IMG/VR virus record: IMGVR_UViG_2706795967_000001
Coordinates: 2,612 to 66,611 of that record
Length of the DNA stretch: 64,000 bases
DNA from: a virus
Lineage: Duplodnaviria; Caudoviricetes
Direction: 5' to 3' (one strand)
Within the stretch, counting starts at the first letter, position 1. Each line of letters opens with the position of its first letter. The position numbers were made by a program, and so were the translations under genes. Positions 24,920 to 61,968 of the stretch are shown piece by piece. The notes below the pieces were generated by a model. The model had not been told where the DNA came from. It did no database searches and saw nothing but the letters and a program-made list of their open reading frames with translations.

Positions 24920-25366
24920 ATGGATCATGACGCCAAGAAGGACTTTGAGGAGAAACGCAAGTTCAGCGAAGCTTACGATTTCATCCGAGGAATCAGTGTC
25001 CTTCTTGGCGTCACCTGTCTTTTATTTGGCTTCCTAACGTACATCTTTGGAGATGCTCTTTTCGGGGCGGGGAAGGCGTCGCAGTATACGCGACTCCTCT
25101 CCGTCCCCTGGTCTCCAGAATCATGGGGCACATTCGCAATCGCTTGCGGTGTCCTGATCCTCGTAGGGTCATTCCGCAGTAATCAGCTCCAGATTGGATC
25201 TGGCTGTACCCTAATGGGAATCTGGTCCTTTGCACTCGCTTACCTGATTGTGATCGACTGCATCAAGTACCAGACCTCATACGGTGCGCTCGGGGCGCTA
25301 TTTTTCATATTCTTTGGAATAGCGATGCTCGGGAGAGCAAGGCTCGGATTCAATTGGAGGTCTTAG
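24920..25366 (+). CDS. Multi-pass membrane protein (lysis cassette)
   Basis: About 4 hydrophobic segments. Confidence 0.75.
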   Translation: MDHDAKKDFEEKRKFSEAYDFIRGISVLLGVTCLLFGFLTYIFGDALFGAGKASQYTRLLSVPWSPESWGTFAIACGVLILVGSFRSNQLQIGSGCTLMGIWSFALAYLIVIDCIKYQTSYGALGALFFIFFGIAMLGRARLGFNWRS

Positions 25367-25855
25367 GTGGAATGGCACTCGGCAAGGGATCGTACGAAGG
25401 TCTTCTTCGATAACCTCACGCACGACAGCGACCGTTCTGTAGGATTTCCGATCTACAGGATTATGACCGGGATCACGATCATCCCGGCAATGCTTCAGCT
25501 GATCTTGCTGAAGGTTCCGGAGTCTGTTGTTCAGACGACTCCAGCCTGGTACCATTTCGTGTTCATCGGGATGCAGATAGCTGGTACCTTGGCGATCCTC
25601 ATTGCTCTAGCGATGGGGGACACGCCAGACTCCGCCAACCTCGAGATGATTGGGGTGATCATCCTTGGCGGAATGAGCTTTATCTATTTCGGAATCGCTT
25701 GGAGATACGATGGGTGGGAGCCTCCTCTAACTATTGCAGCTTGGATGCAGTTTGGGTTCGCTATCTTCTGCGTGATACGTATTTTTCAGTTGCACCGGAA
25801 GCTTGAAGCGTTCAAGCGTCGCGTCGCTGAAATCGTGGAGAAGGAATCCCGATAA
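25367..25855 (+). CDS. Multi-pass membrane protein (lysis cassette)
   Basis: About 4 hydrophobic segments; GGAGG SD before GTG. Confidence 0.7.
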   Translation: MEWHSARDRTKVFFDNLTHDSDRSVGFPIYRIMTGITIIPAMLQLILLKVPESVVQTTPAWYHFVFIGMQIAGTLAILIALAMGDTPDSANLEMIGVIILGGMSFIYFGIAWRYDGWEPPLTIAAWMQFGFAIFCVIRIFQLHRKLEAFKRRVAEIVEKESR

Positions 25856-26223
25856 TGTGGTGGACCCAGGTCATCGTCCCTTTGGCTACGGCAGCCATCG
25901 CGAGCGGCGCGGTGGGCGTGTTCTTTCGCTGGCTCAGTCAGCGACCAGCCTCCAAGCGTCAGCGAGATCAGGCTTGGGAAGAGTTCAAGAACGACACTCT
26001 GGAACGCGCTAATCGCGAGAACGACGAGCTTCGTGCTCGTGTCGCCCTTCTGGAATATCGTCACTTTCTGCGTGACGAACTGTTCATGTTGTTCATGGAG
26101 GACGTCGAGGAACTTGGCGCAGACCACGCCAAGATGCAGCGTCGTCGTGAGATTTGGGCCAAGATCCGCTTCGAAGAAGACCTTATTGCACTGAAGTCCA
26201 TCAAGGTTATGGACAGCCGATAG
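25855..26223 (+). CDS. Single-pass membrane protein with coiled coil
   Basis: N-terminal TM helix, then LERANRENDELRARVALLE. Confidence 0.7.
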   Translation: MWWTQVIVPLATAAIASGAVGVFFRWLSQRPASKRQRDQAWEEFKNDTLERANRENDELRARVALLEYRHFLRDELFMLFMEDVEELGADHAKMQRRREIWAKIRFEEDLIALKSIKVMDSR

Positions 26224-26955
26224 CCCAACGCGATCAGGGCTGCGCGCTCGCGCAGATCCGCTCGAGCGATACGCAGGGCTGCGCCTTAAAACAGTGTGAG
26301 ACATGATCTGTATCGCGCGCGTGGTAAGAGCAGCGCGCGATCGATACTTTCGCGCCCGAGCACACGAACGCACGCACGGAATAGCGATCGCGTGCGATCC
26401 ACACTTTCGCGCCTGTGTGCGAGGACACGCGCGGGAACACGTTGATCGCGCGTGTTCCACGCTTTCGCGCCTGGAGCGCAGGCGCTCGCACGGAACGTGG
26501 AAACGCGCTCTCTCGCGATTCGTGCGTGTCGCGCTAGGCGCGCGTCGCTCTCGCATGTCGCGCTCGCTCGTCGCTCGTGCGTGTATCGCGCACGATCCTT
26601 TGTGCCCAACGACGCGGCGTGTGCCCGCTCGCGTCACTCGTGTCGCTCGCGCACGCGCTTACCTGCGCCAGACGGGCGCATAATGCGCCCTCGTGTCCTG
26701 GGCGCACCTGATCGCGCATTATGCGCGATCCTGCGCGTCATGCGCTCGCGTCCGCGCACATCGCGATCGCAGACCGGCGCATAATGCGCTCTCGTGTCCT
26801 GCGCCATGCGCAGACATGTGCTCTCGCAGATCCGCGCGAACGCACGACCGAATGTGCGGACGCACGCACGTAACAACGATCGCGCCATGCGAGCACGTTC
26901 CATATTGCGCGCAAGCGTGTGTCCTCGCACGTTCCACATTGCGCGCGCGAGGCCA
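26224..26955. repeat. Non-coding alternating purine-pyrimidine region with direct repeats and palindromes
   Basis: CTTTCGCGCC x3 (26347, 26404, 26462); GCGCAT(A/T)ATGCGC x3 (26676, 26714, 26777); GCACGTTCCAYATTGCGCGC x2 (26893, 26927); dense CGCG/GCGC/GATC; no codon bias or SD. Confidence 0.8.
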
Positions 26956-27022
26956 AAAAAAATTTTTTCGGCCCCTACCAGGGCTTTTCGGGTCAATTTC
27001 CGGGAAATTTTGGGGGAGGGGG

Positions 27023-27051
27023 TTGCGTACCTTGGTTGCGTGCCGTAGCAT
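27023..27051 (+). promoter_or_regulatory. Strong SigA-type early promoter
   Basis: TTGCGT, 17 nt, TAGCAT; A/T tracts upstream (AAAAAAAATTTTTT near 26955) resemble UP elements. Confidence 0.7.
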
Positions 27052-27118: not shown

Positions 27119-27712
27119 ATGTCCAACACCACCGCTTCCGTCGCCGCTGCTGCTGCCCAGGAGGCCGCGCGTCCCAAGGCCGACGTCTTCATCGCCCCGA
27201 AGGGGTTCAAGGCGGACAAAGACTGGAGCTACATCGCGGACAAGGATCCGCTGGAGACCCACCACCTCTTCGCCCAGATCATCCGCCGGGAGGCCGGAAT
27301 CGATATCTCTGCGAAGCAGGTCCAGGCGCTGCTGCTGATGCATCGCTGGATGCAGGCCAGCGACCTGAACCGGGAGCGCGAGACCTTCCGCGGCCGGACC
27401 CTTGGGTCCGTGATCCGGGGCTCGGAGACCCTTCTGGGCCGGACCGAGGACCGGGCCACCATCGAGGGCGAGGATGCCCAGGTGGTCCAGACCGTGAACT
27501 CGGTCAGCGACGAAGTCGCCGCTGCCATCCGGGCCGACCTGGCCGCTCCGGTGGCGGAAGAGCCCGAGCAGGAGCCGGAGGTGGACTTCCGGACCGCGCC
27601 GAAGGCGGCGCTGGTCTCCATGGTGGTCGAGCAGGAACTCGCCCCCGAGGCCGACGCCAAGAAGCTGACGGTCAAGAAGCTCCGCGCCCTGCTCAGCGGC
27701 GAAGAGGCCTGA
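27119..27712 (+). CDS. Early hypothetical protein (197 aa), probable paralog of 36994-37533
   Basis: ATG 27119 after AGGAG; very high GC3; FA..Q..L..HR..Q.SD motif. Confidence 0.8.
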   Translation: MSNTTASVAAAAAQEAARPKADVFIAPKGFKADKDWSYIADKDPLETHHLFAQIIRREAGIDISAKQVQALLLMHRWMQASDLNRERETFRGRTLGSVIRGSETLLGRTEDRATIEGEDAQVVQTVNSVSDEVAAAIRADLAAPVAEEPEQEPEVDFRTAPKAALVSMVVEQELAPEADAKKLTVKKLRALLSGEEA

Positions 27713-39204: not shown

Positions 39205-40124
39205 CACCACAGATCATCGGTCTCGACGAAGACGATGACTACGTCAACCTCATGGTCTACGGGAAGCCCGGTTCCGGGAAGACCGTGCTCGGCGGTAGTG
39301 ATGACCGTGTCCTGTTCCTCGCACCCGAGGACGACGGCACCATCTCCGCCAAGCGGCAGGGATCCAAGGCTCGCAAGTGGCCGATCGACGACTGGAACGA
39401 TCTGGCCGACGCTTGCGAGTGGGTCGAGGAGAACATGGAGGAGGTGCAGGCCACATTCGATTGGATCGTGGTCGACTCCATCACCTTCATGCAGAAGCTT
39501 CTCATGCGGCGCATCTTGGAGGACGCCGTGGAGGAGAATCCGGAGCGCAACCCCGACGTTCCGGCCATGCAGGACTGGCAGGTGTATCAGAACCGGTTCC
39601 TCCGGTTCGTCCAGATGATCAACTCCTGGCCGATCAACGTCCTGTGGACCGCTCTGGTTCGTGACGAAGAGGACGAGGAGGAGAACCCCATCCTCGTTCC
39701 GGACATCCAGGGCAAGGGCTATCAGATGGCGATGACGGTCGCCTCGTACATGACCTCCTTCGGCAACCTGCGCGTGGAGATGCGCAAGGTCAAGAAGGAC
39801 GGTGCGTTCGTGAAGGACTCGGACGGCGAGTACGTGAAGAAGCCGCACCGCGTCATCATCTGGCAGGACCAGGGGAACATTCAGGGCAAGGATCGCACGA
39901 ACGTTCTCGCGCCGAAGACGCAGGACGTGACCCTGAAGCAGATTCGCCAGCTGATCACCGGCGAGATCACCCGCGACGACCTCAAGCCGAAGCGTCCCGC
40001 TGCGAAGAAGGCGGCTCCGGCTGCCAAGAAGGCAGCGTCCGCCGCGCGCACCAAGGCGTCCACCACCGAGAAGGAAAGCCCGAAGGAAGATTCCGTGGGC
40101 ACCCAAGAAGGAGATGACAACTGA
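39195..40124 (+). CDS. AAA ATPase, Sak4/RecA-like recombinase
   Basis: VYGKPGSGKT Walker A; IVVDSIT Walker B; lies between the exonuclease and SSB. Confidence 0.8.
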   Translation: MALAPQIIGLDEDDDYVNLMVYGKPGSGKTVLGGSDDRVLFLAPEDDGTISAKRQGSKARKWPIDDWNDLADACEWVEENMEEVQATFDWIVVDSITFMQKLLMRRILEDAVEENPERNPDVPAMQDWQVYQNRFLRFVQMINSWPINVLWTALVRDEEDEEENPILVPDIQGKGYQMAMTVASYMTSFGNLRVEMRKVKKDGAFVKDSDGEYVKKPHRVIIWQDQGNIQGKDRTNVLAPKTQDVTLKQIRQLITGEITRDDLKPKRPAAKKAAPAAKKAASAARTKASTTEKESPKEDSVGTQEGDDN

Positions 40125-40867
40125 TGGCACCTACCGGACAGGCCAAGACCTTCCGCTTCGGCAAGAAGGTCAAGAACGGCGCGACCAAGGAAGCCGGGAT
40201 CAAGACCTACCAGGGTCCCAACCCGCCGAGCGGCAGCTACCTCTGCTCTCTGAAGCAGCTGACGATCAAGGAGAACAAGAACGGCGACAACATGCTCGCC
40301 TTCGTGGCGGAGATCTCGGACACCGGGCCACGCGCGAAGTACAACGGATTCGCCATCTTCGGTCAGCAGAACATCACGGACCAGGGCGCGGGCTACGTGA
40401 ATCAGCTCCTGGACGCGATCTCCGACGGCAACGAGCAGGTCCGTGAGGACTTCTGGGAGGGCGCGGTCAAGACCAAGAAGGCCGAGAAGCTCGACAAGAA
40501 CAACAAGCCGGTCTATCACGTCCGCGCCATCGGCGACGATTTCAAGGTCAACTCCCCCGACGATCTCGACATCCAGCTCGTGATCACCGGCAAGAAGGGC
40601 ACCTACCAGGGCAACTACAAGCTCGACGCCCAGGGCTACGGACCGGCGAGCATCGACCTGGACGGCGACGACGAGGACGAAGACGACATCGAAGCCGGCG
40701 AAGACGAGGCCGACGAGACCGACGAGGACGACGTCGACACCGACGAGGATGACTCGGAAGACGACGACGAAGACGACGACGAAGACGACGACGAAGACGA
40801 CGCCGACGACGAGGACGAAGGCGACGTGTTCGACGACGACGAAGACGACGACGACGAAGACGACTGA
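40124..40867 (+). CDS. ssDNA-binding-like protein with ~68-aa acidic tail
   Basis: PPSGSY.C...GDNML....I pattern; Asp/Glu tract 40661-40864; recombination-module position. Confidence 0.7.
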   Translation: MAPTGQAKTFRFGKKVKNGATKEAGIKTYQGPNPPSGSYLCSLKQLTIKENKNGDNMLAFVAEISDTGPRAKYNGFAIFGQQNITDQGAGYVNQLLDAISDGNEQVREDFWEGAVKTKKAEKLDKNNKPVYHVRAIGDDFKVNSPDDLDIQLVITGKKGTYQGNYKLDAQGYGPASIDLDGDDEDEDDIEAGEDEADETDEDDVDTDEDDSEDDDEDDDEDDDEDDADDEDEGDVFDDDEDDDDEDD

Positions 40868-47541: not shown

Positions 47542-47725
47542 CTCCAGGCATGGAAAGCACTGCTCTCAAGAGCACGCGGACCTCATGCGGGGATACTGGG
47601 CCGAGCGAGAACGTCAGGAAATCGCTCTAGAGAACGAGCTATACAAGGAGTCGGACGGCAATAGTCGTCCGGCTCTTTTGTCATTCCAGGAGTATCTGAT
47701 GGGTAGCCGCAGGAACGGACGATAG
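47519..47725 (+). CDS. Hypothetical protein (68 aa)
   Basis: Probable ATG 47519 after GAAGAGG; CSSRHGKHCSQEH; start uncertain. Confidence 0.5.
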   Translation: MRTRTPCSSRHGKHCSQEHADLMRGYWAERERQEIALENELYKESDGNSRPALLSFQEYLMGSRRNGR

Positions 47726-54313: not shown

Positions 54314-57175
54314 GTGGGAGAGCTCGCGAACATCAATCGTGGGAGGCCCTTCAAGAACCGGGCCAAGGAATACCTCAAGAAGGGAATGCATCCTATTCCC
54401 CTTCCGGCGGGACAGAAGTTTCCGCCACCTACAGGATGGACGGGTCGCAATGCTCCTGCCGTTACCTTCGAACAGATCGACGAATGGTTCTCGGAAGGCA
54501 GGGGAGCAGACCGATCCAACGTCGGCCTGCACATGTTCGAGGTATTTCTGCCTTCGGGAGAACCGGCGACGGTTCCCGATCCGGAGTGGGACGGCTCTTC
54601 GTCGGATTCAGATTCGGGCGTTTCTGTTCCTCCGCAGGTACCTGCGACCCTGATCGGCATTGACGTCGATCACTACGACGACAAGACCGGCGGCGACACT
54701 CTGCGTCGCTTGGAGCGCAAGCTGGGGGAGCTTCCGCCAACCTGGACCTCCTCGTCTCGGAACGACGGGATCTCGGGGATCCGATACTTCCTCGCTCCGG
54801 CGAAGTACGAATACCTCGGCAAGGTCGGCGACGACATCGAGTGCATCCAAAAGAAGCATCGCTTCGCCGTGGTGTACCCCAGTTGGCACCCGCAGGGCGG
54901 GCAATACGTGTGGTATCCCCCAGGCTGTGCGCCCGGTGGGGTGCCGTGCACGTACACCCCGCCGGGTACGGTTACGCATACCAAGTCAGAAAACGCCTCC
55001 GGCTTGGTTACGTTCCAGTTCCGGCGATCCTCGGAGTCCGTGGGCGAGGAACAATGCACTGGCGACGAGATCCCGAACGCCTGGGAGTTTCCTGCGCTTC
55101 CCAAGAGATGGATCGAGCATCTCACGAAGGAGTTTCAGCACGAGACCTCGGGCGCGATCGACATGGAAACGTCGGTCGACGGGATCTATAAGTGGGCGCG
55201 GAAACAGTTCAAACAGAAGGGCGGCAAGTCCAAGTCGTCCCAGGAGACTGCGCTGGCGGAGCTGGGGGAATTTGGCTGCTCGCAGATGAAGAAGCGGGTA
55301 GAGGCCAACGTCGAGAAGATCATGAACTCCAGCACGTCGCACGAGGAGCTTCGCGACGCGCACTGGGAGATCTTCCGGATGGGAGCCGAGGGACACGCGG
55401 GCTGGATGGCGGCGTCTCGTATCGTGGAATTCGCCTGGCTTGATCGTGTCATGGGCGGTACGGGAAAGAATCAGAAGCGAGCGCTGGACGAAGCGCATCG
55501 CGAGATGTTCCGCTCTCGGACCAACGGCCTTCGCAAGATCAAGGCGCAGATAGACAATCAGGCCGCTGGAGTTCCCGGTAAGCGCGTTCGCGTCTCGGAG
55601 AAGTGTGCGTGCTACGAGGGCGACGGCGAGGACCTGGGCGATCTCGGGTTCGACCTGTCCAGTCACAGCGCGCGTGACCCCGGAGCCTACGAACGGAATG
55701 ACGACGGCAACGGCGAGCACTTCGTCGATCTGTACGCCGACAAGTTCTATTTCGTCGAGGGATACGAGCGTTGGATCTATTGGAACGGCGAGCATTGGGT
55801 GTGGGACGAGCAGGGGATGGCTCGTCGCGCCTTCCGCGTGGTCAAGAAGCGACAGCAGAAGTACGCCGACCAGCTCATGCGCGAGGCGGAAATGGCCAAG
55901 GCGGCGGACTCTCCGGACGCCAAGGCTCTCGCAGCCAAGGCCAAGATGTGGAATATGTGGGCCACGAACAGCGGCAACAACCGAGCCGCCGAGGGCGCGC
56001 TCAAGGCCGCGCAGGCGTACGCGGGCATCTCGGTGACCTCGGACGTCACAGACGGCAACCCTGCTCTGCTGGGAGTGAAGAACGGAACCATCGAACTCCG
56101 CCAGGACGGACCGTTCTTCCGTAAGGCGGAGAAGGAGGACTGGGTAGTCTCCAACACGAACGTGATGTACGTTCGGCGAGAGGATCTGCTGCGTGTCGGC
56201 GGCGATCTGGCGGAGGGTGTGCGGCTCTTTGACTCGTACCTAGAGAAGTTCCAGCCCGACCCTTCGGTTCGGCTGTGGCTCCAGCAGGTCATGGGCATGT
56301 GCCTCCTCGGATACAATCAGGAAAAGAAGTTCGTCTGGTTCCACGGCGAATCGCATACGGGCAAGTCGACCATGCTGAACCTGGTCATGCATGCGCTGGG
56401 ACAGTACGCCGGATCGGCCGAGCTTTCCATCTTCCAGAGCACCAAGCTCAACCCCGCCCTGGCGGAAGCGCTGCCGTGGCGAGTGCTCACCACTTCAGAA
56501 GCCAACGCAACCAAGGGCGCTCTCACGGCGGACATGCTCAAGAGGCTCACCGGTAACGACCCGATGAACGCCGAGATGAAAAACTCGAACACCATCATCC
56601 GTCGGGTTCCGGCGTTCGTGCCGATCGTGGCAACCAACAACGCGCCGCATATCGACGGCATGGACGACGCCATGAAGCAGCGCTTCGAGATCATTCCGTT
56701 TGACGTGGTGCAGAAGCCTCAGGACGCTCCGCTGGATATCGAGCGCGAGATGATGGAGAAGTCTCTGCCTGCTGTCCTGGCGTGGCTGGTGGAGGGGTGG
56801 CGCATTTACTGCGAGAATCGCCTGCGCAATAGGCCGGATAGCCTGGTTCCAGCGACCGCAAAGTTCGTCCAGGAGGTGGCCGGAGACATCGGTATCTTCA
56901 TGGAGGACATGCTAATCCTCACTGGAGACGACGAGGATTTCGCTACGGCTGACGAAGTTTACAACGCATATCGTCGCTGGGCATCCCAGAATAAGATCAA
57001 AGAGCACGACGTTCTGGACAAACCTCGGTTCGGGAAGCGCATGAGCAAGTCTGGATACGCGGCAAAACCGAAGTGGGACGGCGAACTTAAGAAGGCGGTT
57101 CGTGTTTATGTCGGTATAAAGTTGCAAGAAAGTGCCAAGAATGTTGTGAAGTTTTCTCACCAGGTTGAGAAATAA
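54314..57175 (+). CDS. Bifunctional primase-polymerase / D5-like SF3 helicase (953 aa)
   Basis: N-terminal PIPLP..QKFPP, NVGL, IGIDVD; C-terminal FHGESHTGKST, LKRLTGND, ATNNAP. Confidence 0.9.
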   Translation: MGELANINRGRPFKNRAKEYLKKGMHPIPLPAGQKFPPPTGWTGRNAPAVTFEQIDEWFSEGRGADRSNVGLHMFEVFLPSGEPATVPDPEWDGSSSDSDSGVSVPPQVPATLIGIDVDHYDDKTGGDTLRRLERKLGELPPTWTSSSRNDGISGIRYFLAPAKYEYLGKVGDDIECIQKKHRFAVVYPSWHPQGGQYVWYPPGCAPGGVPCTYTPPGTVTHTKSENASGLVTFQFRRSSESVGEEQCTGDEIPNAWEFPALPKRWIEHLTKEFQHETSGAIDMETSVDGIYKWARKQFKQKGGKSKSSQETALAELGEFGCSQMKKRVEANVEKIMNSSTSHEELRDAHWEIFRMGAEGHAGWMAASRIVEFAWLDRVMGGTGKNQKRALDEAHREMFRSRTNGLRKIKAQIDNQAAGVPGKRVRVSEKCACYEGDGEDLGDLGFDLSSHSARDPGAYERNDDGNGEHFVDLYADKFYFVEGYERWIYWNGEHWVWDEQGMARRAFRVVKKRQQKYADQLMREAEMAKAADSPDAKALAAKAKMWNMWATNSGNNRAAEGALKAAQAYAGISVTSDVTDGNPALLGVKNGTIELRQDGPFFRKAEKEDWVVSNTNVMYVRREDLLRVGGDLAEGVRLFDSYLEKFQPDPSVRLWLQQVMGMCLLGYNQEKKFVWFHGESHTGKSTMLNLVMHALGQYAGSAELSIFQSTKLNPALAEALPWRVLTTSEANATKGALTADMLKRLTGNDPMNAEMKNSNTIIRRVPAFVPIVATNNAPHIDGMDDAMKQRFEIIPFDVVQKPQDAPLDIEREMMEKSLPAVLAWLVEGWRIYCENRLRNRPDSLVPATAKFVQEVAGDIGIFMEDMLILTGDDEDFATADEVYNAYRRWASQNKIKEHDVLDKPRFGKRMSKSGYAAKPKWDGELKKAVRVYVGIKLQESAKNVVKFSHQVEK

Positions 57176-57193: not shown

Positions 57194-57415
57194 CCTTACG
57201 GCAAATTACGGCACATTACGGCGCATTTCGGCACCTACCAGGCATTACGGTAATTACGGCAGATCTGGCTTAGTGCAATATATATATACGTGAAGGGCAA
57301 TAGGGAGGGGCACACAAAACCTCACATGTGTAAAAACCCTGTAAGTACTGTAATGCACTGTAATGCCTGGTAGTGCCGTAATATGTACCGTAATGTACCG
57401 TAATGTACCGTAATG
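57194..57415. repeat. Putative replication origin: inverted iteron arrays around an AT-rich core
   Basis: Left arm TTACGGC repeats at 10-bp period (57196, 57206, 57216, plus 57245, 57254); core AATATATATATA; right arm GTACCGTAAT x3 (57385-57414) plus degenerate copies; the two arms are reverse complements. Confidence 0.75.
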
Positions 57416-58631: not shown

Positions 58632-59201
58632 GTGACAACGTACGATTACGACGACTGCAACAGCACTCGTGAAGTTCTCGCGAAGATCTTCCAGTTCGCA
58701 TATCACTGCACGCATCCTGTCATCCCCGACGAGATGATCACCCCGGCGTACTACCGCATCAACACTCTGCGAGAGGATGGGAACGCAGAGCTTGGGATCA
58801 CCCTTAAGTCGGTAGGGAACCAGCCCGGCAACACGTGGAGAGCAGGCAGCTACGGAGATCAGGACTGCGAGGTCTGGTGCTACTGGGACGCAGGCGTGCA
58901 AGCGTGGCTTCCCTACACAGTGGACGGGTACGCGCTCGTGCTTGTGGACAACGAAGTCTCCACCGTCCTGCCATTCTCAGTGGATCACGAGGGCATGTGG
59001 ATCTCCATCGGCGTGAAGCAGAGTACGCCGGTGGTCGCCGAGCGACGAGTTCCGCCCACGGAGGAGGAGCGCAACGTTCTGCTCGAGCTGTTCCTGGTAT
59101 GGATGACTCAGGAGGGGATCGTCGCCCAGACTCCGGGAGTACAGTTGACGACAGATCAGATCGTCGATCGCTTCAACACCCGGTACGAGGTGAAGGAATG
59201 A
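58632..59201 (+). CDS. Hypothetical protein (189 aa)
   Basis: GTG 58632 after AGGAG. Confidence 0.7.
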   Translation: MTTYDYDDCNSTREVLAKIFQFAYHCTHPVIPDEMITPAYYRINTLREDGNAELGITLKSVGNQPGNTWRAGSYGDQDCEVWCYWDAGVQAWLPYTVDGYALVLVDNEVSTVLPFSVDHEGMWISIGVKQSTPVVAERRVPPTEEERNVLLELFLVWMTQEGIVAQTPGVQLTTDQIVDRFNTRYEVKE

Positions 59202-59692
59202 GCAGCGACGATCAGGCCGACACACTGGAGTACTTGCGTGAAGTCGCAAAGTTCAAGGAAGCCAAGTCCGTGGAGGAGATGCTCGTCATCCTTGTGGACT
59301 CCGCTCGGCGCTCGGGTCATTTGGACGAGGCAGGAACTTCTTCATACGGAGAGACCAAGATCCTCGTGGAGGGTGCTATCGCGCGCCTGGCGGAACTTTC
59401 GGGCGGCAGCATGACAACAGGTGGTCCACGATACCAGTTCCCCGAGGGGTTCAAGATCGTGGAAGACTCGAAGGAAGTGCACTCGCGTTACGAGATTCTT
59501 CGGGCAAGCGGGGTTCGTATGCACGTTCATCCCACCGGTCGTGGCCTTAAGGACGATCGGAATGGGTGGATAGATCTGCTCGGGCTCTTGGAAAAGGAAT
59601 GCTTTGAAGAGTGGGGAGTGAACCCCAAGCTCAGGCTCGTCTACACGGAGTACCACTACGTCCAAGCGAACAAGACCGAGGAGATCCAGTGA
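59198..59692 (+). CDS. Hypothetical protein (164 aa)
   Basis: ATGA coupling. Confidence 0.7.
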   Translation: MSSDDQADTLEYLREVAKFKEAKSVEEMLVILVDSARRSGHLDEAGTSSYGETKILVEGAIARLAELSGGSMTTGGPRYQFPEGFKIVEDSKEVHSRYEILRASGVRMHVHPTGRGLKDDRNGWIDLLGLLEKECFEEWGVNPKLRLVYTEYHYVQANKTEEIQ

Positions 59693-59943: not shown

Positions 59944-60284
59944 GCGACGATCTCCTCGACGAGGACATGCAGCTGTTGCAGTTCGTGACCACGCACGCTC
60001 ACAGCGAAACCGAGATGCCGAGCGTGGACCTGAGCGACGTGGAAGGCCCGCTGGTCGTCGTGGAGCGTCGCGTCTACTGGCTCGGTCGTCAGGACGACGT
60101 CTCGCAGTTCGGGGTCGATCCACTGACCGACTGGACTGGTCTCGTCATGAGCCACACGGACACAGCGCGACAGCGGCATCAGTACATGTGCATGCTCATC
60201 CAGACGTTCACCTACAACAACGACCAGGACGGGGCGTGGAACGCTCTGGAAGGCGCTATGCGGGAAGCGGGTTACTTGTCGTGA
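59940..60284 (+). CDS. Hypothetical protein (114 aa)
   Basis: GTGA coupling; GGGAGG SD. Confidence 0.65.
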   Translation: MSDDLLDEDMQLLQFVTTHAHSETEMPSVDLSDVEGPLVVVERRVYWLGRQDDVSQFGVDPLTDWTGLVMSHTDTARQRHQYMCMLIQTFTYNNDQDGAWNALEGAMREAGYLS

Positions 60285-60571
60285 AGTATCGCAATCTCGC
60301 ACACATGCGCGCGGCTCGCCTGGCACTGAACAGGCTGCACGAAGCAGTAGAAGTGGACAAGACCTTCGGCGACCTGAAGCTGTATCGCCAAGGCAACGGG
60401 TGCAATCAGGACGAGCCCATCGTTTCCAACGGCGCAGAGATTCAGGCGTGGGGCATCGAGGACGCTCGCAAACTGTACGAAGATCTCAGCGATCTTCTGG
60501 ATTATCACGACAATCGCGTCAAGGAAGATCCGGCTTACGCGAAGATGATCAAAGACTACGAGGAGGGGTAG
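60281..60571 (+). CDS. Hypothetical protein (96 aa)
   Basis: GTGA coupling. Confidence 0.6.
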   Translation: MKYRNLAHMRAARLALNRLHEAVEVDKTFGDLKLYRQGNGCNQDEPIVSNGAEIQAWGIEDARKLYEDLSDLLDYHDNRVKEDPAYAKMIKDYEEG

Positions 60572-61968
60572 TGCCGAGTCCTGAGGAGAAGGCCGAGTAC
60601 AACAGCGAGCCCGAACTCCTTCCCTTCGAGGGCACGCACGAAGACCCAGAGGGCGAGGAAGTCGAGCATCCGTATCTAGGCACCACCCGCAAGTTCAGCG
60701 AGGGGCAGCTGTCGCGAGCCAAGGGTCTCCACGGCAAGGGCAATCCTCCCGACTTCCTGGAATATCACGTTCCACTGGATCGTCGTGGACCCTACAAGCT
60801 TCTCGCTTTCCCCGGCAAGCTGAACGAGCGAGAGGGCGCGGCCTCCTACGCGCTGTGCAACGGAACCACTCGCACCGGCAACAGCCTCAGGGACGTGGGT
60901 CGCCCATGCAAGGCGAAGGCGATCAACATGAGTGGCTTCTGTTCGAGGCATGGCGGAGCACTCTGCCCACTCGATCGCAAGAGGATCAACTGGGATACGG
61001 TTCCTCGACACATCAAGTTCAAGTACGGTCGTCTTCCAGTGGACGATCTGGACGACGAAGAGCTGGCTCGCGGCCAGATCAGGAAGCCGGACGGCTCGTG
61101 GACACAGAACAAGTCCGTGTCCGCAGAAATCCACAACGCCATGATCGCCAAGCTGTTCGACCGCAGCGACGAGATGTTGCGCGAGAATCTCCTAAAGGCA
61201 GTGGAGACCTTCGCCGAGATCGCGACAGGCACAGCGTACGAGCCAGCAGATCGACTGAAGGCAGCCGAGTTCATCTTCACTCGACTCAGGGGTAAGGTAC
61301 CCACTGAGATCAAGCTCGGTATAGACAAGCCATTTGAGAAGGTGCTCGATGCAGTCTTGGTTGGAGGCAATCGTAGTGACTCTCGCGCTGCTCGTGCTAC
61401 TGGTCTGGATGACTATCTCGACGCTGACGTCGTATCCGTGGAAGGAGCCGAAGCTGAAGATAGTGAAGAGGCTCCTGACGTGGATCGAGGAGCGGTATTC
61501 GAGGCCACCCGACGGGAGCTAGAAGCTCTGCAGGAAGAGCCGATCGAAGACGACGACGAATCGGATATCGACGAGGAAGGCTACGACTACACGGATCCTC
61601 GCGACCGTACCCTCGCACGAGATCTGATGCCGAAGGAAGTCGTTTCCACTGGATCGGCTGGGAAGCCCACCACCGACAAGCCTTACGGAGGATACGAGGC
61701 TCAGCGATACGAGCAGAAGCAGCACGAGAACGCGCAGGAGGCGGAGGCTCGTCTCAACAAGCTGTCTCGTAAGCGCAAGACTCCTCAGGAAGTGGCGGAA
61801 GAACGGAAGGCTCACAAGGAGGAGATGCGTCGCAACATCGCTCGTCGCAAGGGAGCCATGAAGCGCGGTTACTCGAATCTCCCGGAAGGCGTGAAGGCTG
61901 AGGTGGAAGAGGACGGGGAAGACGTGACCTTCCGCTTCAAGTCCAGTGGAGAGGAGAAGGACGCGTGA
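60571..61968 (+). CDS. Probable terminase small subunit (465 aa)
   Basis: CNGTTRTG...PCKAKA...FCSRHGG zinc motif; helical DRLKAAEFIFTR; GTG overlaps upstream TAG. Confidence 0.65.
   Translation: MPSPEEKAEYNSEPELLPFEGTHEDPEGEEVEHPYLGTTRKFSEGQLSRAKGLHGKGNPPDFLEYHVPLDRRGPYKLLAFPGKLNEREGAASYALCNGTTRTGNSLRDVGRPCKAKAINMSGFCSRHGGALCPLDRKRINWDTVPRHIKFKYGRLPVDDLDDEELARGQIRKPDGSWTQNKSVSAEIHNAMIAKLFDRSDEMLRENLLKAVETFAEIATGTAYEPADRLKAAEFIFTRLRGKVPTEIKLGIDKPFEKVLDAVLVGGNRSDSRAARATGLDDYLDADVVSVEGAEAEDSEEAPDVDRGAVFEATRRELEALQEEPIEDDDESDIDEEGYDYTDPRDRTLARDLMPKEVVSTGSAGKPTTDKPYGGYEAQRYEQKQHENAQEAEARLNKLSRKRKTPQEVAEERKAHKEEMRRNIARRKGAMKRGYSNLPEGVKAEVEEDGEDVTFRFKSSGEEKDA

Follow-up and report, generated by a model that had tools for sequence, protein, structure and literature searches.

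What is the function of the single large non-coding block in the genome of Gordonia phage Terapin? The 730-bp block, here called the tract, occupies positions 26224-26955 of the window, i.e., of the 64,000 nucleotides which comprise bases 2612-66611 of the 66,611-bp virus record. Terapin (66,611 bp, 59.6% GC) is entered in Table 1 of PMC5559632 as a lytic singleton whose ends are circularly permuted. Its nearest relatives are the Gordonia phages Suzy (~86% identity) and LilyPad (~78%) in the genus Terapinvirus. All Terapin genes are located on the plus strand. The structural genes and the lysis cassette precede the tract; early and replication genes come after it, followed by a TerS-like gene, and the terminase gene stands at the start of the record. 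An earlier note, made from the sequence letters, had placed the tract between the lysis cassette and an early promoter. The flanks match: the tract begins directly after the lysis-cassette open reading frame (ORF) which ends at 26223, and the promoter, TTGCGT-17-TAGCAT at 27023-27051, is predicted only. The analysis shows a non-coding tract whose repeats exceed chance and which has no counterpart elsewhere in the genome; it is syntenic in three clades, under purifying selection, of variable copy number and not a genome end. Our tentative proposal, possible rather than probable, is that it constitutes a conserved cis-acting boundary element which ends late transcription and gates the early promoter.

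The composition of the tract is singular. Purines and pyrimidines alternate at 0.663, the highest value of the genome, whose mean is 0.477 (z 6.9). The ratios of observed to expected CpG and GpC are 1.73 and 1.58, GG and CC steps are halved, and the density of GCGC plus CGCG is about tenfold that of the rest of the genome, where both tetramers are mildly under-represented. This bears out the abrupt change to alternating CGCG/GCGC DNA which had been described for 26224-26955. GATC is present 13 times compared to 4.7 expected by a first-order model; genome-wide GATC is also over-represented, with 9.0 per kb versus about 3.6 expected by base composition. The tract does not encode protein. The spread of GC content by codon phase is 0.05, compared to a genome-window median of 0.22 and to 0.3-0.45 in the neighbouring genes. 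Copies of the tract in relatives differ by insertions or deletions (indels) of 57/58 bp, and the translated identity to relatives is lower than the DNA identity. These three properties rule out a coding function, and the initial non-coding assignment is upheld by the flat codon-phase GC and the indels.

The tract contains 25 repeated 10-mers as compared to 5.0 ± 3.4 in dinucleotide-preserving shuffles (maximum 17 among 300). The corresponding figures for inverted words are 24 and 16 ± 8, i.e., no excess. Consequently, most of the dense palindromes pointed out initially follow from the CG/GC composition. The repeats and the hairpin of the first description are all present at their positions; direct repeats exceed the shuffles, whereas the general palindrome density does not. 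The exception is a thrice-repeated 13-mer, kept across clades, which is the informative palindrome. A motif scan of the whole genome located every tract motif exclusively in 26224-26955.

From left to right the tract is built as follows. The left element (26224-26300, plus strand) has two copies of CAGGGCTGCGC (26235, 26274) followed by CCTTAAAAC and is possibly the 3' end of the late operon or a terminator signal. A version of it is recognisable in LilyPad, Suzy, Phreeze and Barnyard, and in LittleFella despite the lack of CG repeats there. The pattern (C)GCAGGGCT..GC.TTAAAAC is positioned directly 3' of the lysis cassette in Terapin (26224-26300), LittleFella (L146:3020-3125) and Barnyard (L164:8130-8165). 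Three direct units of 57/58 bp are next (26329-26500, plus strand; repeat families D2, D6 and D9). They read GATCGCG(Y)G..(A/T)TCCAC(R)CTTTCGCGCC, then ..ACGCACGCACGGAA. CTTTCGCGCC is at 26347, 26404 and 26462, spaced by 57 and 58 bp; TCCAC boxes within the units are at 26398 and 26456, and the hairpin arms GGAACACG and CGTGTTCC at 26434 and 26453. An irregular CG-rich segment (26504-26660) comprises CGCTCG repeats phased at 13 bp, a degenerate inverted unit and, at 26575-26595, a terminator-like hairpin followed by TCCTTTGTG (GATCGTGCGCGATAC on the minus strand at 26583). Its GATCCTTTRTG is invariant in LilyPad and Suzy.

The second half starts with a palindrome cluster (26669-26805) bounded by a 35-bp direct repeat (26669-26703 versus 26770-26804, 91%). 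The 13-mer GCGCATAATGCGC is at 26676 and 26777, a degenerate copy is at 26733, and the inverted copy at 26714 sits inside a palindrome with 10-bp arms (26710-26730). The cluster is kept in LilyPad and missing from Suzy; the 13-mer type recurs in the modules of Mycobacterium phage Phreeze and of Barnyard. Distal partial units (26837-26955, plus strand) are represented by GACGCACGCACGTAAC (26859), GATCGCGCC and two copies of CACGTTCCAYATTGCGCGC (26894, 26928), the latter as part of a 20-bp repeat at 26893 and 26927 (95%). The tract abuts an A/T block (26951-27022, plus strand) which consists of a GGCC-flanked A8T6 (26955-26968), CTACCAGG (26975-26982) and CAATTTCCGGGAAATTTT; it is either UP-element-like or prone to unwinding. 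The A/T block with its CTACCAG is kept in LilyPad, Suzy, Phreeze, Konstantine and Predator; the Barnyard variant is CCTGGTCAG..TTTTGATC..AAATTTCCGG. The predicted SigA-type early promoter (27023-27051, plus strand) has a -10 region, CCGTAGCATCGTTC, which is invariant in LilyPad and Suzy.

Is this arrangement peculiar to Terapin? The same module is found at the same junction in Terapin, Suzy, LilyPad, the Mycobacterium Konstantine-like phages, Predator and Barnyard. The order of its parts is a CAGGGCTG..TTAAAAC element, TCCACGC-type units with GCGCATWATGCGC palindromes, the A/T block with CTACCAG, and the promoter. The wider order is constant, i.e., lysis cassette, left element, units and palindromes, A/T block, promoter and early genes; the position of the palindromes differs by clade and the number of units ranges from 2 to about 10.

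Within the genus the syntenic gap is elastic, from 578 bp in Suzy to 1097 bp in LilyPad. The palindromes are missing from Suzy, whose units number two in direct and one in inverted orientation. The inverted unit, with arms of 58 nt that are 81% complementary, matches the irregular segment of Terapin (26504-26660). LilyPad has about five units and retained the palindromes. In BLASTN, 26334-26470 matched Phreeze (genus Konstantinevirus) with 71% identity. In Phreeze the lysis cassette is followed by the CAGGGCTG..TTAAAAC element, which encloses GCATAATGCGC palindromes, and by 58-bp units, five or six in number, in which TCCACGCTTTCGCGC and GACGCACGCACGTAGC are present; the CTACCAG-containing A/T block and a region resembling a promoter complete the module. 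The Phreeze units are 92% identical over 78 nt. All 13 of the 13 Konstantine-like and Predator records contain the module. In Barnyard the left element and a palindrome are followed by ten direct GCGCGATTCC(A/C)(C/T)GCG boxes, spaced by 22-25 bp. In LittleFella, a member of Terapin's own genus, the entire genome is devoid of homologues of the repeats; its junction, a 341-bp AT-rich gap with ordinary hairpins, has kept the left element alone. The repeats were likewise not found in Ranch (genus Lambovirus), which has ordinary hairpin terminators at the junction. Because it is missing from these two phages, the repeat array, though old and widespread, is dispensable or replaceable.

Some peculiarities of the relatives are worth recording. 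In Konstantine a 35-bp hairpin, GCTACGTGCGTGCGT-GATGT-ACGCACGCACGTAGC, is present in two copies 68 bp apart (L298:2200-2330). Its 15-bp arms are perfectly complementary, it shows the unit motif in both orientations, and it is located in the least variable part of the tract. In Konstantine-like phages the promoter is separated from the first early gene by a further non-coding stretch of about 600 bases (L005:3860-4417 in Phreeze; L145:3100-3250 in Predator) with long CA-rich runs and a tRNA T-arm-like GGTTCGATTCC; ARAGORN and Rfam make no call there. Small ORFs are annotated inside the homologous tract, namely Damien gp40 (L293:1935-2132), Thumb gp40 (L297:1924-2184) and Barnyard gp47 (L164:8310-8564). 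They are probably not genes because sister records leave the same DNA unannotated and because repeat-unit indels are located there.

The tract is under purifying selection, as judged from an alignment of seven Konstantine-like phages in which it was compared to the third codon positions of the flanking genes. In the tract 46 of 935 sites are variable, compared to 76 of the 746 third positions (odds ratio 0.46, p 4e-5). A core of 300 bp has a single variable site, and one entire 58-bp unit was gained or lost among these phages. Between Terapin and Phreeze the units are 71% identical, about as much as the major tail and capsid genes, while most proteins are only 30-50% identical.

How might such a tract operate? 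We propose that it would serve as a platform of repeated recognition sites set in hairpin-prone, CG-alternating DNA. The candidate sites are the (A/T)TCCACGC..CTTTCGCGC units, the GACGCACGCACGTARC motif and the GCGCATWATGCGC palindromes, on which one or more sequence-specific DNA-binding proteins would assemble. On a circular or concatemeric genome the bound proteins, together with GC-rich hairpins, would stop transcription entering from the lysis cassette, and they would also set the activity of the adjacent A/T-block promoter. Protein binding and a role as terminator, insulator or promoter gate are what we infer from the following. The hairpins occupy different positions from unit to unit, and recognition by proteins is therefore favoured over a fixed fold. 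The ten-box array of Barnyard with its direct repeats at 22-25 bp has a typical binding-site geometry. The mid-tract terminator-like hairpin with the conserved TCCTTTGTG tail supports a boundary element. The ordinary hairpin terminators at the LittleFella and Ranch junctions are consistent with a functional replacement. Of the general idea first put forward, a non-coding cis-acting element with operator-like sites at the late/early junction was retained; the genome-end or pac and the decoy options were not.

Several observations weigh against a boundary element. The hairpins of the tract lack U tails, and the equal folding of both strands gives no hint of an RNA signal specific to one of them. 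An array of direct and inverted repeats next to an A/T block suits a replication element equally well, and a protein bound to sites up to 800 bp upstream would be unusual for simple promoter control. When third positions of lysin B alone are taken as reference (6.5%), only the 300-bp core is clearly slower, and recombination may inflate the selection contrast. Finally, phyletic profiling of tract-positive versus tract-negative genomes produced no cleanly co-occurring phage ORF.

Comparisons with known systems are instructive. Short conserved non-coding motifs which presumably bind regulators are described for actinobacteriophages, i.e., the Cluster A stoperators, the 17-bp palindromes of Cluster O, SAS/ESAS of Cluster K and the Microbacterium EC/EG motifs (PMC5559632, PMC4351075, PMC3203893, PMC7302621). 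Those are scattered near gene starts, whereas here all copies are assembled in one tract of 0.7-1.0 kb. Since all copies of the tract motifs are inside 26224-26955, a dispersed, stoperator-type motif set was rejected. A functional analogy is offered by REP/BIME elements and by the Sal-box/TTF-I terminators of rDNA: partly palindromic, repeated boxes that, on a head-to-tail template, stand behind a long transcription unit and ahead of the promoter that follows. These have no sequence relation to the tract, in which binding and polar arrest are putative. By this analogy the tract may even be a phage boundary element of an undescribed kind, in which polar boxes in Z-DNA- or cruciform-prone DNA would stop RNA polymerase, perhaps also forks, and prime the next promoter, with a reader conserved between Gordonia and Mycobacterium. 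To this more specific version we assign little probability. Literature searches did not retrieve a description of such a tract element.

The search for a binding factor was unproductive. Scans of candidate DNA-binding proteins against Pfam, PHROG and NCBIfam gave no assignable regulator. Proteins common to Terapin and Phreeze are those of core replication, recombination, packaging and the virion, all of them also present in LittleFella. The first early gene differs between clades. An ORF of about 46 aa after dnaE (47585-47725) resembles Phreeze gp55 (AERERQE motif); in tblastn it is the sole ORF common to tract-bearing phages and not present in LittleFella.

The main rival is an auxiliary replication site. 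The tract would act either as an additional origin or as an enhancer of the kind that crr is in phage P4, with a replication protein bound to the repeats, melting of A8T6 and activation of initiation by the adjacent promoter. We consider this doubtful, yet it has to be taken seriously. Direct and inverted units adjoin an A/T-rich block, with A8T6 and CAATTTCCGGGAAATTTT directly after the tract, and a promoter; the Barnyard boxes have an iteron-like spacing of 22-25 bp. Terapin encodes a P4-family primase-helicase (54314-57175; TIGR01613, 148.8 bits versus a cut-off of 108.7) with Prim-Pol and D5_N domains. P4 uses two separated repeat sites. Further, CTACCWG, located beside the A/T block, recurs as an inverted pair in an ori-like element of Terapin, Suzy, LittleFella and Phreeze; by a rough estimate the chance of this coincidence is about 1%.

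This ori-like element (57194-57415) is positioned directly after the primase-helicase gene; in it an AT core, CAATATATATATAC, separates ATTACGGCA iterons from inverted GTACCGTAAT iterons. The same architecture after the primase gene is present in Suzy (record 60240-60540), LilyPad, LittleFella (record 59020-59340), Phreeze (L143:17480-17760) and Barnyard (L299:24460-24745), with lineage-specific iterons. In Terapin ATTACGGCA and GTACCGTAAT are limited to 57.2-57.4 kb, where tract motifs were not found. The post-primase element is the better origin candidate; it is universal and covaries with lineage as the site of an initiator should. It may also have a role as a pac site.

Several points speak against a replication function of the tract. 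The more canonical ori-like element exists in every relative examined, tract-less LittleFella included. Tract and ori-like element exchange no iterons or motifs except for the CTACCWG heptamer (CTACCAGG in the tract). The tract motifs are cross-clade and the ori-like iterons lineage-specific; it is therefore unlikely that one initiator recognises both. No initiator gene adjoins, as the flanks are a lysis membrane protein and a 197-aa protein. The cumulative GC skew rises monotonically with no inflection at the tract, i.e., no signal of an origin or terminus. The geometry of the boxes points neither way: Terapin has four plus-strand boxes, in units at 57-58 bp, and Barnyard the ten boxes at 22-25 bp.

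Iteron origins such as P1 incC/incA, F, R6K and lambda ori share with the module direct repeats of an asymmetric box (at 22-25 bp in Barnyard), inverted copies, an A/T block and a variable copy number. They differ from Terapin with its 57-58 bp period, lack of an adjoining initiator gene, separate and more typical ori-like element and a congeneric phage without the tract. The parallel to ori and crr of P4 comprises the primase-helicase family, an AT core flanked by inverted iterons and a distant second element with repeats. The two P4 sites, however, share one iteron, whereas the iterons of tract and ori-like element in Terapin differ and have only CTACCWG in common.

Could the tract act on a host protein instead? 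As a sponge or decoy array it would titrate a host factor or a defence protein common to Gordonia and Mycobacterium. Its accessory distribution, present in Terapin, Suzy and LilyPad and not in congeneric LittleFella, would fit, as would the copy number of 2 to about 10 and the conservation of motifs across host genera while no phage ORF covaries. Nevertheless, a sponge is unlikely. The strict unit pattern had zero matches in 185,579 prokaryote genomes, and in 16 actinobacterial genomes of one GTDB order, which are not the true hosts, the box did not outnumber its reversed control. Three spaced TTCCACGC boxes retrieved at least 120 unrelated tandem repeats from prokaryote genomes of many phyla, nothing host-specific. 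Nucleotide conservation does not exceed that of the best-conserved phage genes, so a conserved phage protein could equally be the reader. The motifs of DnaA boxes, parS, topoisomerase I sites, ECF-sigma promoters, PhoP, MtrA and GlnR fitted only partially and inconsistently between units and were dropped. In viral contigs CCACGCTTTCGCGC alone gave single unspecific matches. The spaced pair CTTTCGCGC..CTTTCGCGC retrieved Suzy, one unrelated contig and chance matches. This contig (IMG/VR 3300029573_000322; L136:1980-2560, minus strand) has between two ORFs a tandem array of about 600 bp with CG-rich units of about 62 bp which contain CTCTTTCGCGC; it may be an analogue rather than a homologue.

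The earlier note had suggested Z-DNA or a cruciform which absorbs negative supercoiling from the adjacent promoter. In this reading the structure would take up transcription-driven supercoiling between the late operon and the strong early promoter. The idea is physically possible, and we examined it with a simple Z-Hunt-style model using energies of the Z-Hunt table. Apart from the extreme alternation and the depleted GG/CC steps, a composition kept in all three clades, the tract makes up 26-40% of the 400 windows with the lowest B-to-Z energy and nearly all windows that are favourable at sigma -0.045. Perfect palindromes exist, with 10-bp arms in Terapin and as the two 35-bp hairpins of Konstantine-like phages. 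Yet the longest perfect alternating runs are 10-13 bp, zero windows are favourable at sigma -0.03 and few at -0.045, the best short Z-formers are elsewhere in the genome, and the inverted-word content is no higher than the composition predicts. Such a structure leaves direct repeats and conserved non-alternating motifs unexplained; CTTTCGCGCC and TCCAC are non-alternating and conserved across genera, which points to sequence-specific recognition. With Z-DNA tracts upstream of active promoters the Terapin tract shares strong purine/pyrimidine alternation directly upstream of a predicted strong promoter; it differs in that it lacks a long (CG)n or (CA)n run and is dominated by conserved non-alternating motifs. 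DNA structure is thus insufficient as an explanation and, as the function proper, quite unlikely.

Similarly improbable is a function at the level of RNA, i.e., a structured 3' untranslated region which stabilises the late mRNA or a processed non-coding RNA. The tract is situated directly 3' of the last late gene with no earlier canonical terminator, and its predicted folding is stronger than that of shuffles (plus strand z -3.96). However, the minus strand folds equally well (z -3.91). No Rfam 15 family matched at gathering score (best 25.4 bits versus a threshold of 48), nor did any at the loci of Phreeze, Predator and LilyPad, and a tRNA search of the tract found none. The 57/58-bp indels would disrupt any global fold. 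Hairpin positions vary between units and between Terapin and LilyPad whereas the linear motifs are conserved, which favours recognition at the DNA level.

Another suggestion of the earlier note was a genome end or a pac site. A cos site or direct terminal repeat was discarded: as the genome was published as circularly permuted (PMC5559632), the tract is not a physical end, and the record starts at the terminase gene. Circular permutation means that a pac site is expected somewhere, with TerS-binding repeats which start headful packaging. The repeated sites and the GATC excess are reminiscent of pac in P1 (GATC hexamers) and SPP1 (pacL/pacR), and a TerS-like protein is common to Terapin, Phreeze and Barnyard. 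In Terapin, however, about 34 kb separate the tract from the TerS-like gene (60400-61968, PHROG 10899), and half of the tract is missing in Suzy. LittleFella, a congeneric phage, has no tract although its TerS-like protein is 42% identical to that of Terapin as opposed to 30% for Phreeze. We regard a pac function as very unlikely.

Least probable, hardly credible in fact, is functionless repeat DNA or a recombination linker which persisted at a mosaic junction: a mosaic breakpoint between Terapin and Suzy lies exactly at the left edge of the tract (30-50% identity up to 26230, 96% at 26258-26357), copy number varies and LittleFella has lost the tract, but the Konstantine-like tract is slower than synonymous sites, with one variable site in the 300-bp core, and the motifs are kept over three clades despite proteins of only 30-50% identity. 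At 24935-26230 Terapin and Suzy share only 30-50% identity in the lysis cassette's three membrane-protein genes, as opposed to 85-96% in the flanks, a module swap which ends exactly at the tract.

Two further candidates were rejected outright. A decoy array of restriction or methylase sites, also proposed initially, has no support: no DNA methyltransferase signature was found among Terapin proteins, and sites left unmodified would harm the phage rather than act as a decoy. Two proteins are labelled methyltransferase; one is SSB-like with an acidic tail, the other a small class-I SAM enzyme without DNA-methyltransferase motifs. The gene at 40124-40867, with the PHROG label 'methyltransferase' and an SSB-like appearance, encodes about 180 residues followed by a 70-residue Asp/Glu tail and adjoins a Sak4-like gene. 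A CRISPR mini-array or solitary unit was excluded; the 30-nt repeats are only 73-87% alike and the supposed spacers are themselves repeated (families D6 and D9).

As to the flanking genes, the last ORF of the lysis cassette (25855-26223, plus strand; PHROG 19565) codes for a membrane protein of 122 aa and is syntenic with Suzy gp33 and LilyPad gp35. The first early ORF (27119-27712, plus strand) codes for 197 aa; family searches gave no function. A homologue heads the early genes in tract-less Ranch as well, hence this protein is not tied to the tract.

The lytic actinobacteriophages of this group transcribe all genes in one direction on a circular or concatemeric template. The tract, kept at the same junction in three phage genera over two host genera, may bear on the question of what bars late transcription from the early genes and what controls the early promoter. 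For annotation a correction is indicated: the small ORFs which several GenBank records show in the homologous tract should probably not be counted as genes, and the DNA after the primase gene is the better place to look for the origin. The tract is a defined and tractable target for BRED deletion and motif pull-downs. Its binding partner, if found, might bring to light a new regulator or a host factor which these phages exploit.

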